A program made the position numbers and the translations under genes. Below are positions 46-60,400 of a DNA stretch of 64,000 bases, one piece after another; within the stretch, counting starts at the first letter, position 1; the number at the start of each line of letters is the position of its first letter. The stretch is from Chrysomallon squamiferum (Eukaryota > Animalia > Mollusca): the NCBI GenBank assembly GCA_012295275.1, contig CM022676.1:2666001-2730000 (forward strand), read 5' to 3'. The notes beneath the pieces are model-generated. The model saw only the letters and a program-made list of their open reading frames with translations. It did no database searches and had not been told where the DNA came from.

Positions 46-105
46 TTCTAGAAGAGTTGTACTACATGAATCGTGATGACAGATTACAGAATCAAGTATT
101 GCCAG
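46..105 (+). CDS. Gene 1 60-nt Tyr-containing tail exon with a GC donor
   Basis: tttag|tt cta gaa gag ttg tac tac ... ttg cca g|gcgagt; phase 1-1; LEELYYMNRDDRLQNQVLP. Confidence 0.6.
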
Positions 106-3100
106 GCGAGTACCATAAAATCATATGAAATTAGACTGAAATAACCAACTTGCACATGATACAGAGTTTATTCCAACAGAAATAAACATTTGTCTTAAAA
201 TCTGTGCTTATTATTAATAACATAAATTTATTTGAAGAAGAAAGGAAATAAGATAAAACCGTTTCTTCAACAGCTGAACAATACTGGAAATTTTCACATT
301 GCAATAGCTATTATTCTTTCTATTGCAGAAATAATATTTTATAAACTGTTAAATTTAATAGATATTTGTGGTAAAAAATTAAAACAAATAATTATTTAAT
401 TAAATTATTTTCTTGTTTTTGTTTCAGTGTTGGAGGATAATGATTTGTATTTCAAATCTGATGACAAAAAGAAACTCAGATTGCCAGGTTTGTATTACAT
501 CATGTTTAAAAAGAGACAAAGAGGGAAAAAAAGTAATAATATTAATAATAAAATAATTTACAGATAACTGATCTCTTCAGAATATAAGTTTCAGTAATAT
601 GTTGCTGTTTTTTGTTGTTGTTTTTTGATGTTTTTTTAGTTTAAAAAAATTAAAGACAGATTTATTCTGGCAGCATTTAATAATATGGAAATGAAAATTA
701 TTTTCTTATTCTGTATACAATTTTTCAATCATTACAATTAATAGTTCATTACTTAATTAATTTACTTTTAACCACATTCATATTAAAACTGTGTTGTACC
801 AATTTTTCATTACATACAACTGCTGATAATGAACATGATACGTGTTCTTTTCATTGCTAAAAAAGAGTAAATTATAATATCTTTACCCATCCATTTATCC
901 ATCATCTGTGAATTCTGTCTGTTATCTTTTTGAGTCTAATTTTGCCATAGTCTATGTATTATTTTTGCGAAATGTTAATAATAATAATAATAAAGAATTG
1001 GCTTGTAAGAATTCTTAGTTTTTAGAAATGATAAATTCATAATACATTTACACAAACATACCAGTGTCTGGTGTTGCTAACATTTTCATATTTATTAAAA
1101 TGATATCTACTGTAATTTAATATGCTGTCATTGTTATAGCAGGAAATGATTCCAGACAAGTTGATCCTAAACCAAGCACAAGTTCTGGAGTGACAGCTGA
1201 GAATACTGAAAGTCAATATTCTGTTGTAAAGACAACAAAGACTGGTCAGTCTACAAGTAATCAGAGTAAAGAAGGTAAAAAAACATTAAAAACAAATAAT
1301 AGTAAAAAAACATGAAAGGCTGACTGGGACTTGGAGCATATCTTTAATGTTGAACTCTACACCTTTTCAAATGTACTTTATATAATAGTATCCAATGACA
1401 ATCTTATTGATGTAGCTCAATGCTATCATTTCAACAGATTTTAGTCATTGTTTAATAAACCTTGAAATTATATATGGATCCAAATTATTTAAAATTTGTA
1501 TCACATTTTTTATAAAAGCTCCACACAATTTACTATTAAATATTTATTAGGTCATAACAGAAATAATACTTGTCAAAAATTAAATTGTTTCTTGCTGATG
1601 TGCTGCTTATAATACAGTATTCACAGTCATCAAAAGTCATTTATAAGTGCAACTATTATGTGGCTTTGGTGAACATATTGTTGAAATGGTGGCTGGAAAA
1701 AAGTCACAAAATGTATGGGTTTGTATTGAATGTGGCATTATAGTATGCATGGGCTAATTGTTAAACTTATTGATTAAGCTAGATTAAAGAAAGTGGCTTC
1801 ATACTGGGTCTAGCTTGGGTTTAGCTTGCTGATTAGGATATATTTAAACTAAGGGCTTCCTATTGTAAATGATTTATAAAATATCCCAGGTTAAAATTAT
1901 TTCACTATATATTCTACAGCTTGCTCTAGTATCAGAAGTATGTTTAATATTGAAGTTACTCATAGCAATAAGAGTGGTAACAAAATCTGTTATGAGGGTT
2001 CATGTATACCAAACATGCAAATCGCAAAACAAAGTTGTGGTGGAAATGCATAAACAAATATCATTGTAATTGTCGAGGTTCAACAATAACAGACTTACAG
2101 AGAGAGCCTTGAGGACTGCAAAACTGTGGTAGAATTTCTTTGTGGTATTGGGTGGAACATCCACCTAAATCATCAACATTAAAATCAAAGAACAGGTGTT
2201 TCATCTATCTTTCATTTCTTAAATTTAATAAAAAGTTGTGACATTTTTCCTAGAATTGTTGAAACACCTGCAAATAATTGAGAAGAAAAGAACATTCTTA
2301 GAAAAGAGAACTGCAAGTAGAGGATATTTCAAAACTTGTCAAATGGTTTTCTTACCATGAATAAAAGAAGAAGAAAAAAAAAATATCTATGAGCCACTTC
2401 ATACAGAAATCTGATTTGGACAGATTCTGGTTTAGAATGTATTTTTTTGTTTGTTTGTTTTTAAACATAATTGTAAGTTGCACAAATGAAATGTGTTGAC
2501 TGTATCATTAAATGAAAATCTTCCTACCTTTGTTTAAGTTAATTGTCACTTATAAAATTCATATTATTGTTTGATCAGTTAATGTTATTTCTCCTATAAA
2601 TTACAGGTGAGAAAGGTAAAACAGAGTCTGCCAATGAGAAAAAAAGAAAGAGGAAAAGCAAGATATAAAAAGAAGGGAACAAGAAAAGAAAAAGAAAGAA
2701 AAAGGTTTGTAAATTGAATTAGCAGGCTTATGCGATGAATTAATTTACACCTAAATTTAACAAGTAATATGAAATATTTTTTCTAACTATGACATTTTTA
2801 CGGGGATCCTACTCCAAATTTGGACACTCTGGTAACATAGAAATTCATACACTATCTAAAATACAGGGATCGTATGCATTTTGGAAAGTTTGGGAAAATC
2901 GGGTTTTGTTACATTGGCTGTGGAAAAAGTTATGGAAAATTATGTATGAAATAATGTATGAAAAACTGCTTTGTTTCACCAATATTCCAAAGAGTGCTGG
3001 TACAATTTATTGTTCCCATATTTAGTAATCTTGTGAAAAAATGTATGTGTTTAAAACAAGCAGTATATAAAATCACCGTGCATAATCTGGATGATCTTAT

Positions 3101-57400: not shown

Positions 57401-60400
57401 CAATGTTATATATTTCTTAATCTGCATAATACGTTTATCATATAAATCAGAAGAAAACATTAATTTTAATTTAATGAGTTTGCTTCCATATTTCAAATAT
57501 TTCATCACATATTGTAGCGAAATTGAAGAATTTTTCTATGTCATATTCATAGAATAATAGATTAGTAATGTATTTAAATAAATTTAAACCACTAAGTTTG
57601 AAAAAAAAAAAAATGAAACAATAATATTCTCAAAAGATTATTTAAAATGCAAAAGATTAATAATAGAATAAGAACATTTTTCGAAATAAAATGTAAATAA
57701 AAACATAGTATTTAAGAGGAAAGTATAATTGACGGGAGTAATATGATTATATTTTCAAACACACGGATACACTCAGATAGAGAGAAGGACAGACAGTCAG
57801 CCAGACAGAGAGAGAGAAACAGCCATGCACACAATACAAATAGATTTCATTTGTATTTCAAAAATAAATTATATAATGTAACGGTCTGAATGTAGGTATT
57901 AATATATTGCAATATCAGTCAGATAACATCGCATGTACATGAAGCAGCTATATTTTGATAAAGATAATCAGTTACAAATAAAAAAAAACAACTCGAGAAC
58001 TATAAATATATGACACCAACACTGCACTTATCCAAACTAAAAATCTCTTATAAACCTGTTTATAAAATACTTGAAAACTGAAGACTTGTATTTACAGCTA
58101 AACAAAAACAAATTAAGTAAAACTCACCAGTTGAAGTCAATGTTAAACTTGTTAATAAAATAACAGTCATTGCTGTGGACATGGTTAAACAATCTAAGAA
58201 CAACGTAAATGAAGAAATGTAACACTAAGAGATAAAAAAAGAAATCAGTTCAAAAACCTATTTATAAAATACTTAATCGTCTCATCGACATGTCTGTGAA
58301 AGACAAGTGTTATAGTTATTAAGACAGAAACAAAAACAAATAAAGTAGAACTTACCAGTTGAAGTCAATGTTAAACTTGTTAATAAAATAACAGTGATTA
58401 CTGTGGACATGGCTAAAAAATCTAAGAAAAACCGAAAAGTTTTTTACCGGATGTAAATTACGGGTCATGTGACCGGTGACATAAAGAAACTATACCCTCT
58501 GTGATTGTTGTATCCGCTAGTCTAATGTAAAATTTAACAAATAAAATCTGCGATTAAAGCACTGACTTAGTTTTTTTAACTGTAAATAATCTTTATAAAC
58601 TGTTGAATGGTCTGCACATATCGAGACAGTTGTTGCACACTCAACAGGAGATGTTATTGTTTTATTTTAAATACAAGGCGCTAGTCAAGCACTGGAAGAA
58701 AGCAGATACGAAATAACATGAAAATGAAAGAGAGAATACACAAATGGAAGGGGAGAAGAAAGTATAAGAAAGGAGAAAGAGAAGAAAACACAATTTAGAA
58801 CATATAATCTATTTATGCTTTATAAATATTATAAATAATTACTTTTGTTCACTGTTAAAGATTTTCCTGTCTAATTATAAATAACTATGTCACAATTTGT
58901 AAAACATTTCACTTTGAATAGACTTTAAGATTAAATGTATTAAATAACAATAACAATGAAAATAATAATAATAATAATAATAATAATAATAATAATAATA
59001 ATAATAATAATAATAAAATTAATAATAATAATAAATAAATAAATAAATAAATAAAGTAAATGCACTTCACAGGTACTGATAGTATAAAAATATTAAAAGT
59101 AAGATTTTATTAATTCATATAAATAAAGGCTGCTTTCATTTTAGTAGCTTGATATTTTATTTAAAATTAAGAAGGTAATAAGGGTAGAATATTACGTTAG
59201 CTAGTTGAATAATTAAAGCAGTGCGTTTAATCTAATTTAAGCACGAATTAAATCTCTAATAAGATTGGTAAAGAGTTAATAAATTAAGAAGTTAATATAT
59301 TCTGTTAAACAAAATAATCAACACACTGAAGAATGATAAGAACATGAAAGGGGAAATAACTGTCGACGAAGCTTTTAAAACAATTCGTAAAATAATTCTT
59401 GAGGAAGCTTTCAAAACAATTCTTTCTTTCTTTTTTTTTTTTATTCATTGCGCTGATTTGTTGTTCTCTTTATTTTGTATAAGTGCAGTGTTGGGTGTCA
59501 TATATTTATAGTTCTGCAGTGGTTGTTTTATATTTATAGCTGAGTATCTTTATCAGGTATCTGTGTCAGGTACATGCGATGTTATCTGATTGATGCTGAA
59601 GAAAACTAATACACATATTCAGACGGTTACATTATATAATTTATTTTTGAAGTATATAAATACTCAGTAGTATTAAATACTCAGGCTTTCTTTCAGTGAA
59701 TTTGCTAGTGGGGTTATTCTTCTGTGAAAGTGTTTTTTTATTCTCATAAACTATAGGATTACTTAAGAGAGAAGACTGCAATACAGATATATAGTAACAC
59801 AATTACAGCGCTCATCCCGATCACTCAGGGGTTTGTTCACAATAGATTAACGTTGGCTGGACGAGAGTTTCAAATGGTGCCGGTTTTCTTATAGTAATTG
59901 TTTGAAGGGTCGTGAAAAAGCAACCAGACAGAGCTCAGTGAAGGAAGATATGTAGGACAGACACACAGACAGAGAGTAAGGAGACTTACACGAAGATGAC
60001 AACGCCGACTACCACGAGTTGGAACAGACTGAGACAAATAGCCGGTTCATTTCAATTACATGATTTCAACATGTTCAACGTATTAGTCGCAATATGATGT
60101 ACGTTGGAATTCGTGGCGAAGATTGAAATGTTCAAGTATATTGTAAAAATGATTGAGCTAAATTGCAGATATATTGTTTTCGTTATGTTATTTTCATGGT
60201 TTTGATTAAGTACTTTTATTTAATTATAGTGATAGATATATTATATAGATTCAATCGCTGATAAACAAACAAAGAAGTATATAGTTATATATAATATAAT
60301 ACATACATACATACATACATACATAGATAGACTGATAGATAGATACATGGATGGATGGATGGAGAGACAGACAGACAGACTGAGAGACACACAGACAGAC

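Follow-up and report, generated by a model that had tools for sequence, protein, structure and literature searches.

In vertebrates, the KIR/LILR receptors of the leukocyte receptor complex (LRC), the SIRPs, and the Siglecs are clustered, fast-duplicating immunoglobulin (Ig) receptors in which near-identical ectodomains carry opposite cytoplasmic tails, with pseudogenes among them. The tails of PD-1 and of CD33-type Siglecs contain a tyrosine-based inhibitory motif of immunoreceptors (ITIM) followed, about 20–28 residues later, by a switch motif (ITSM) or a further ITIM; the activating partners usually have no motif of their own, and tyrosine-based activation motifs of immunoreceptors (ITAMs) are supplied by DAP12 or FcRgamma through a charged transmembrane (TM) residue. 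Here we describe a 64-kb stretch of the genome of the gastropod Chrysomallon squamiferum (GenBank assembly GCA_012295275.1, contig CM022676.1, positions 2,666,001 to 2,730,000; the whole of this stretch is called the window below). On balance, the window is probably an Ig superfamily (IgSF) receptor gene cluster with conserved ITAM- and ITIM-consensus tails, predicted to encode paired activating and inhibitory surface receptors. Its subjects are gene 1 (+ strand), with an ITIM-type tail; gene 2 (- strand), with a double ITAM; gene 3 (- strand), with a single ITAM-like tail; and a second family, V-Ig2, represented by genes A, B, and C.

Both signalling arms have been described in oysters. CgIgR of Crassostrea gigas is a type I receptor with five Ig domains, a TM segment, and an ITAM (EGDYTELGQCDPETPYEKL) that recruits Syk and activates ERK (PMC6994640), and CgNCAM1 has three Ig domains, a fibronectin type III (FN3) domain, a TM segment, and two ITIMs, binds SHIP2, and damps inflammatory gene expression (PMC11841013). 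These two receptors show that both arms work in molluscs. In the Alr complex of the cnidarian Hydractinia, V-set and I-set Ig domains are combined with an Fn3-like fold and a TM segment; ITAMs occur in 14 tails and ITIMs in two, pseudogenes number 12, and divergence is greater in the tails than in the ectodomains (PMC9546547). Likened by architecture alone, Alr is a comparable invertebrate cluster; it differs in being an allorecognition locus, and the available portions of that paper report no 85%-identical ITAM/ITIM pairs.

The case for paired forms is carried by Gigantopelta aegis, whose proteins are the closest named ones to those of the window (59–66% identity, none identical). G. aegis P0004, which has a double ITAM, and P0015, which has an ITIM tail, are 85% identical (286 of 338 residues) and then continue into unrelated tails. 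The shared stretch, residues 1–338, comprises the ectodomain, the TM segment, and the juxtamembrane sequence RRSRLSSKN, and identity breaks off where the TM exon, by its boundaries in the window, ends. Judged from these sequences, opposite tails on a near-identical ectodomain are what defines paired receptors, with the putative ITAM here in cis. We found no description of ITAM and ITIM forms of one mollusc ectodomain in the literature searched, outside which lay most subscription journals and supplements.

Gene 2 has the build of the double-ITAM form: five Pfam-supported Ig domains, one FN3 domain, a TM exon, and two ITAM exons. Its Ig and Ig+FN3 exons are 47–60% identical to G. aegis P0003 and P0004. 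Its exons are:

16343..16640, - strand: Ig exon (C2-set_2, Pfam PF08205, E 2.5e-8), with a donor at 16343 and a provisional 5' boundary
14353..14640, - strand: Ig exon (Pfam Ig_2, 27.7 bits), 57% identical to P0003, splice sites present
13798..14064, - strand: Ig exon (Pfam Ig_3, E 2.9e-12)
13419..13706, - strand: fourth Ig exon (Pfam Ig_3, 31.7 bits), in which the phase-1 donor at 13418-13417 is GG, not GT
12158..12805, - strand: I-set Ig and FN3 exon (I-set 24.2 bits, fn3 24.0 bits), 59–60% identical to four G. aegis proteins
10822..10953, - strand: stalk/TM exon, interrupted by an in-frame TGA at 10912-10910, a position at which Gly is conserved in G. aegis
10443..10547, - strand: ITAM exon 1, DQTYEGLQQNRDTTEYSRI, containing DQTYEGLx8YSRI; matched by tblastn with the P0004 tail at E 0.004
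10226..10344, - strand: ITAM exon 2, DHMYEDLQESREEPQYTKL, containing DHMYEDLx8YTKL and YENV, then a stop; matched by tblastn with the P0004 tail at E 2e-4

The TM and both ITAM exons are successive, in consistent phase 1, and close with a terminal stop. Both motifs fit [DE]xxYxxLx8Yxx[LI], and P0004 has two YEGLQERxDSAQYSxL motifs at the equivalent place, with YQNL opposite the YENV of the window. The strict ITAM pattern occurs four times in the six-frame translation of the window, two of these in simple repeats, against a mean of 0.93 and a maximum of three occurrences in 30 Markov simulations, so the pattern by itself is weak and position, phase, and homology carry the ITAM case. A first-pass annotation of the same sequence had placed a gene with six Ig domains and two ITAMs tail-to-tail with a gene carrying an ITIM-type tail. 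The arrangement stands, as genes 1 and 2 lie 3.9 kb apart on opposite strands with SQYSVV and LLYVGI in one tail and two ITAM exons in the other; the count of Ig domains is reduced to five, since the candidate open reading frames (ORFs) for a sixth, at 17712-17512 and 17138-16863, gave neither a Pfam nor an Atlas match.

Gene 1 contributes the putative inhibitory tail, encoded by six exons that all have AG acceptors and compatible phase, with GT donors except for a GC at 106-107. The exons, with the two forms of exon B entered separately, are:

46..105, + strand: tail exon 0, (V)LEELYYMNRDDRLQNQVLP, phase 1-1, GC donor at 106-107, paralleling the LPVLxDNxLY(F/Y) repeats of G. aegis P0015 and P0017
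428..487, + strand: tail exon 1, (V)LEDNDLYFKSDDKKKLRLP, phase 1-1; matched by tblastn with the P0015 and P0017 tails at E 8e-4 and 3e-3
1140..1274, + strand: tail exon A, with the ITIM-consensus SQYSVV, aligning to P0017 residues 562–622 (SLYASV)
2607..2704, + strand: K-rich exon B, long form, with an in-frame TAA at 2666-2668 and an end in phase 0; weak P0017 match
2607-2615, + strand: exon B, micro-exon form of 9 nt, donor GTAAAA, which keeps the frame
5111..5202, + strand: tail exon C, GDVYENV...YANAAF, with a YxN motif, 59–62% identical to P0007 and P0017
6159..6347, + strand: last exon (D), with LLYVGI, VEYVST 23 residues later, and then the stop codon

The predicted tail thus reads, in order, two LY(Y/F) repeats, SQYSVV, GDVYENV...YANAAF, LLYVGIDF, and VEYVST. 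Both SQYSVV and LLYVGI fit the ITIM consensus [SIVL]xYxx[IVL].

The end of this tail is conserved beyond the window. An exhaustive HMMER search with the last exon of gene 1 returned eight matches at E <=0.001; three of them (P0008, P0012, and P0013), being unrelated repeat proteins, were set aside. G. aegis, the abalone Haliotis cracherodii, the clam Ruditapes philippinarum, and two further records supplied the remaining five, all of them tails, and cluster look-ups add two more proteins from G. aegis, P0015 (of 585 aa) and P0017 (of 755 aa), in which Ig domains, an FN3 domain, and a TM segment precede a tail colinear with that of gene 1. A word-indexed search with the same exon against longer proteins gave no match. 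Of the seven eukaryotic homologue tails, six have the first C-terminal motif, DGL[LIV]Y[VA]x[ILV], and the seventh (P0009) begins inside it; the second motif, [TV]EYxx[IV] (an ITIM or ITSM), occurs in all seven. Conservation of these motifs across gastropods and a bivalve supports the ITIM reading of gene 1. The bodies of P0015 and P0017 match the Pfam I-set, V-set, and fn3 families, and because their tails are colinear with that of gene 1, the gene 1 ectodomain is by homology predicted to be of the Ig-FN3 kind. No second ITIM module was found when six homologous tails were compared with the window by tblastn.

In addition to these tails, G. aegis P0002 (XP_041378949) has an Ig-FN3-TM body followed directly after the TM segment by transposase-like sequence (Pfam PF13358, which we take to be a DDE endonuclease family). 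This suggests that the tail was lost through transposon insertion in this relative.

Compared by architecture, and as far as the accessible text of the oyster papers describes their receptors, gene 2 resembles CgIgR in having five extracellular Ig domains, a TM segment, and an ITAM in its own tail (PMC6994640). It differs in the added FN3 domain, in two ITAMs spread over two exons, in its YxN motif, in having ITIM-tailed sisters, and in the interruption of the window copy. CgNCAM1 is built like P0015 and P0017, the ITIM forms of G. aegis, and by homology like gene 1, but has three Ig domains and is described there with no ITAM-tailed twin (PMC11841013). Clustering, opposite tails, and pseudogenes are shared with the vertebrate paired receptors, and the LHYADL...TEYASI tail of G. 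aegis P0005, a relative of the V-Ig2 genes discussed below, has the layout of an ITIM followed by an ITSM or ITIM. Unlike in vertebrates, the predicted ITAMs are in cis and the V-Ig2 TM segments are uncharged; no orthology is implied.

The G. aegis relatives are named DSCAM homolog, L1-like, syg-2-like, and titin-like by NCBI, much as the first-pass annotation had foreseen for automated pipelines. The names invite the alternative that these are ordinary adhesion or neural IgSF proteins of the NCAM/L1/DSCAM/SYG-2 type, whose tyrosine motifs act in endocytosis (YxxPhi), with Grb2 (YxN), or in other signalling and resemble ITAMs and ITIMs incidentally. Ig-FN3-TM architecture is common to cell-adhesion molecules, and regular-expression motifs are frequent by chance. 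We nevertheless regard this explanation as unlikely. A single FN3 domain was found, the DSCAM C-terminal Fn3 model (PF25059) scores 22.5 bits against a cut-off of 39, and each ITAM keeps its spacing and its two tyrosines between species at ~60% overall identity. Moreover, one ectodomain carries either ITAM or ITIM tails, and the family is multicopy, lineage-specific, and rich in pseudogenes, which is unusual for conserved single-copy neural cell-adhesion molecules. Similarly built oyster proteins signal via Syk or SHIP2 (PMC6994640, PMC11841013).

A third gene in the paired-receptor reading, gene 3, consists of an Ig, an FN3, a TM, and one ITAM-like exon, all in phase 1 with good splice sites:

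28887..29167, - strand: frameshifted Ig exon upstream of gene 3, a paralogue of the second Ig exon of gene 2 (14640-14353) at 87% DNA identity
28283..28552, - strand: Ig exon (Pfam Ig_3, 37.1 bits)
27799..28086, - strand: FN3 exon (Pfam fn3, 29.9 bits)
27421..27534, - strand: TM exon, ...GIGIGLVVGILLLCFPAIIILFILRRR
26096..26193, - strand: ITAM-like exon, TTQYECLQSRDAPAYEKL, then a stop; YECLx7YEKL, with no acidic residue at -3

The second ITAM gene that had been proposed is confirmed in that YECLx7YEKL does follow the TM exon; the acidic position is lacking, and the upstream Ig exon is out of frame. The second half of the CgIgR ITAM (P.YEKL) resembles APAYEKL of gene 3.

Expression was assessed by aligning RNA and DNA contigs to window positions 1–11980, which take in gene 1 and the tail region of gene 2. 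Transcription of gene 1, with splicing between its last two exons, is shown by one RNA contig (X9, record 29), which has one mismatch per piece and joins exon C to exon D (5199/5202 to 6156/6159). A second (X8) joins 1274 to 2607 with GT..AG, that is, exon A to exon B. On gene 2, an X8 contig from a paralogue of ~90–96% identity joins 10824 to 10548 (TM to ITAM exon 1) and the end of an FN3-like exon to 10959. RNA contigs at 90–96% identity with FN3-TM and TM-ITAM1 junctions indicate that a close paralogue with the gene 2 build is expressed. Spliced expression of the tails, on which the earlier proposal depended, is thus seen directly for gene 1 exons C and D and through paralogues for gene 2. 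Compared with the flanks, 6001-6400 and 10001-11200 carry more contigs that are at least 90% alike, and four to five distinct DNA contigs cross sites 6191-6229; this pile-up suggests paralogues, with depth not equal to copy number.

Several observations weigh against reading the window as a cluster of paired receptors. The ectodomain of gene 1 lies before window position 1, and in its tail VEYVST is degenerate, failing the ITIM consensus with Thr at +3. The frame through the tail is kept only with the 9-nt micro-exon or with exon B skipped, and the RNA contig joining A to B extends at least 26 nt beyond the junction, past the micro-exon donor. Given the stop and wrong phase of long exon B and this contig, the translated ITIM exons of this copy are a candidate only. 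Gene 2 as assembled has both the TGA between stalk and TM segment and the GG at its fourth Ig donor, so that its ITAMs are not joined to the ectodomain, and the frameshift upstream of gene 3 is of the same kind. With the Pfam ITAM model (PF02189), ITAM1 scores 18.1 bits (E 0.0035), below the 22.2-bit cut-off and close to the 18.3 bits of P0004, and neither ITAM2 nor the gene 3 exon gives a match; the ITIM and ITAM regular expressions are themselves low in information. The RNA runs are metatranscriptomes whose tissue of origin is not stated, and most aligned RNA contigs are only 90–96% alike and so derive from paralogues. Finally, we infer the immune role, cell type, ligand, phosphorylation, and partner binding of the window receptors from sequence. 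The clustered invertebrate locus of ITIM, ITAM, and V-domain genes envisaged in the first-pass annotation is borne out by homology to P0004, P0015, and P0017, and qualified by the lesions of its ITAM genes.

These lesions raise the alternative that the locus is a graveyard, in which the ITAM and ITIM genes are non-functional duplicates of working genes elsewhere and the window as a whole performs no receptor function. The nonsense codon and lost donor of gene 2, the frameshift of gene 3, and the stop in long exon B of gene 1 would all fit this, as would the origin of most RNA contigs on the gene 2 tail from other copies. We consider it quite unlikely for the locus as a whole. Exons C and D of gene 1 are joined in a near-exact RNA contig, and a frame-preserving path through gene 1 exists via the micro-exon or exon B skipping. 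Open frames and good splice sites are seen in the last four exons of gene 3 and in all three exon types (V, Ig2, and TM) of genes A and B. DNA contigs from two other studies end exactly at 10913, beside the TGA, which is a weak hint that this site is variable. In the haplotype that was assembled, genes 2 and 3 themselves appear to be null or in decay, while paralogues nearly identical to them are expressed.

An AG at 10910-10909 was considered as an acceptor that would bypass the TGA in phase 1, and was rejected for its poor pyrimidine tract and lack of read support. The TM segment of gene 2 (ALGSVTEIVLIVIIVFFL, 10880-10890, - strand) holds a Glu, and its G. aegis counterparts (GSVVVVGVIVVLAVFF) are without one. 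A dispersed repeat of ~300 bp (78% identity) flanks gene 2 at 9554-9840 and 22876-23174. Between gene 2 and gene 3, a 168-aa ORF at 21054-21557 (- strand) begins with Met and a short hydrophobic leader, continues into a domain of ~90 aa (…THVITLEIFTFNETKHAGTWNVTE…) with no Pfam match, and might belong to gene 2 as a first exon or form a small gene of its own.

Beside these genes in the predicted paired-receptor cluster, the V-set+Ig2+TM genes are a second, separate receptor family, evolving by recent tandem duplication, in which, in the assembly, A and B stop at the membrane. Units A (39819-37261) and B (57343-54662), both on the - strand, belong to a tandem duplication of ~8 kb, with the block at 37.2–45.5 kb repeated at 54.6–60.6 kb at 89–95% identity. 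The exons and exon remnants of the family are:

39418..39819, - strand: gene A V-set exon (Pfam V-set, E 0.0073), with ESM Atlas V-set clusters at 0.95 and weak PDB-profile V-domain matches
38462..38794, - strand: gene A Ig2 exon, 65% identical to G. aegis P0005
37261..37382, - strand: gene A TM exon, with TAA right after ...SIFFVV and an overlapping GTAAGT
56942..57343, - strand: gene B V-set exon (Pfam V-set, E 7.8e-4), 80% amino acid identity to A
56166..56498, - strand: gene B Ig2 exon, 94% amino acid identity to A
54662..54822, - strand: gene B TM exon, with TAA right after the TM segment and ATAAGT at the donor position
46635..46985, + strand: gene C Ig2 exon, divergent, 48% identity to A
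47813..47951, + strand: gene C TM exon, with a decayed copy at ~47560-47700
48225..48351, + strand: gene C putative short cytoplasmic exon, YSRSQRKNR...NESV, then a stop; no ITIM; an in-silico model only
45981..46298, - strand: Ig2 pseudo-exon with one stop
51689..51991, - strand: Ig2 pseudo-exon with three stops
52130..52273, - strand: truncated V pseudo-exon, the first 49 of 133 residues
53168..53293, - strand: Ig2 exon fragment, the last 42 residues
63452..63667, + strand: truncated Ig2 pseudo-exon, beyond the span (46..58410) of the first-pass annotation

The V-set assignment has three weak, concordant lines of support: Pfam (E 7.8e-4), PDB profiles (pIgR, VH, and TREM-1), and the Atlas clusters at 0.95. 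The PDB profile searches are themselves weak, with best E values of 0.0037 for the V exon and 0.016 for Ig2. The AlphaFold2 model of the gene A Ig2 exon is a beta-sandwich with a predicted local distance difference test score (pLDDT) of 70.8, and the listed Foldseek matches are all Ig domains (best E 4e-3), none reaching E <=0.001. A V exon upstream of the gene C Ig2 exon was looked for, and none was found.

In this family, three of the seven Ig2 exon copies are intact, two contain stops, and two are truncated, and among the V exons two are full and one is truncated. The many pseudo-exons and the birth-and-death turnover that had been predicted are confirmed by these counts (four of seven Ig2 and one of three V exons broken) and by the block duplication, and the same broken exons would suit a graveyard. 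The intact copies argue the other way, as the ratio of nonsynonymous to synonymous differences per site (pN/pS) between A and B is 0.45 in Ig2 and 0.49 in the V framework, which points to constraint since duplication.

The claim that V variation is focused on loops also held. A and B differ at 27 of 133 residues in V, as against 7 of 112 in Ig2, and their introns are 91–93% identical. Within the V exon, 15 of 35 residues differ in windows resembling complementarity-determining regions (CDRs) versus 12 of 98 elsewhere (Fisher p 3.5e-4); these windows are generic, set from the two cysteines, and were chosen with knowledge of the data. The pN/pS in the CDR-like windows is 2.6, a value from two sequences with two synonymous changes in those windows, which tempers what the V exons contribute to the paired-cluster reading. 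A first partition into loop and framework (21/50 vs 6/83) was drawn after the differences had been seen and was rejected as circular. The AlphaFold model of the V exon has a pLDDT of 34.7, so loops are not definable from structure. Comparing these two sequences, the V variation fits putative diversifying change in CDR-like loops.

The V-Ig2 genes had also been described as having no cytoplasmic tail. This applies to A and B, where TAA follows the TM segment and where no tail exon was found in the window by tblastn with the six homologous tails; their TM segments (TAVTAVAVVSSVLLVVVS[IV]FFVV) have no charged residue for pairing with an ITAM adaptor. It does not extend to the whole family: the short cytoplasmic exon indicates that gene C is not tail-less, and the ITIM+ITSM tail of P0005 (LHYADL...TEYASI) indicates that the family includes inhibitory-type members.

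In G. aegis, LOC121386065 (P0017, the multi-Ig-FN3 ITIM type) and LOC121386193 (P0005, the V-Ig2 type) are on one 53.39-Mb scaffold, so the two families may be linked there too. In the window, an orphan TM-like exon at 33156-33374 (- strand; …VYVAGAVFCALSLLCGAVVVIVVLLRRGRW…), with no recognisable ectodomain exon between it and gene A, adjoins a tandem repeat at 33363-33692 with a period of ~47 bp and 83% identity. Degenerate tandem and dispersed repeats (71–79% identity among copies) occupy 61187-64000, around the last Ig2 pseudo-exon.

Gigantopelta aegis is a symbiont-bearing vent snail, and the RNA runs containing the locus are labelled metatranscriptomic. Both facts would suit a cluster dedicated to self/non-self or partner recognition (allorecognition, gamete recognition, or symbiont management), as in Hydractinia Alr, and not to pathogen defence. 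Parallels with the Alr complex are the V-set loop-focused replacement, the ITAM and ITIM tails, the FN3-like spacer, and the abundance of pseudogenes (PMC9546547). However, snails are not colonial, and the similarly built oyster relatives respond to bacteria (PMC6994640, PMC11841013). We regard a dedicated recognition role of this kind as highly improbable, and retain the reading of predicted paired activating and inhibitory receptors, whose ligand could be microbial or self/non-self.

The window is AT-rich (24–34% GC) eukaryotic DNA, with small exons, long introns, and many simple repeats. Ten of the 23 long ORFs match Ig/FN3 families at E <=0.01, seven of the ten above Pfam's own cut-off, the ORF at 19660-19902 has no Pfam family, and a further 149 ORFs (>=48 aa) match none at E 0.001, which leaves Ig and FN3 domains as the sole recognisable coding content. 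Several ORFs of 68–118 aa at 49671-50454 (+ strand), in a locally richer stretch of 33% GC and with no Pfam match, may be a decayed mobile element. A high-copy repeat lies at 1601-2400, where summed DNA-contig depth is 2,500–11,000 versus ~150–400 on the flanks and there are many variant contigs with loose ends.

Based on these features, we propose a mechanism for the paired-receptor reading in which the multi-Ig-FN3 ectodomain would bind the ligand. In the ITAM forms, a Syk-type tandem-SH2 kinase would be recruited once Src-family kinases had phosphorylated the two YxxL/I pairs. In the ITIM forms, the phosphorylated LxYxxI/[TV]xYxx[IV] pair, 23–28 residues apart, would recruit SHP/SHIP-type phosphatases, and the signal would be damped. 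Because each tail has phase-1 exons of its own behind a TM/juxtamembrane exon common to both kinds, the opposite forms would arise by duplication with exchange of tail cassettes.

On a broader scale, and more tentatively, molluscs may have independently evolved paired receptors in which one multi-Ig-FN3 ectodomain is joined to swapped phase-1 tail cassettes, either a double ITAM in cis or an ITIM-ITSM module common to gastropods and a bivalve. The opposite forms would lie tail-to-tail in a fast-turning cluster, beside a V-set family under diversifying selection in its CDR-like loops, as a possible lophotrochozoan counterpart of the LRC. Vertebrates characteristically regulate innate lymphocytes and myeloid cells through paired activating and inhibitory Ig receptors, a logic known elsewhere mainly from Alr and from single oyster receptors. 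In mollusc genomes, receptors of this type are masked by automated names (DSCAM, L1, titin-like), and the locus supplies concrete peptides and genes for Syk and SHP/SHIP coupling. With one ectodomain in both ITAM and ITIM form, an ITIM-ITSM module shared with an abalone and a clam, and a neighbouring V-set family whose changes centre on loops, this gastropod locus would show that the on/off design of paired receptors arose or persisted in Lophotrochozoa.

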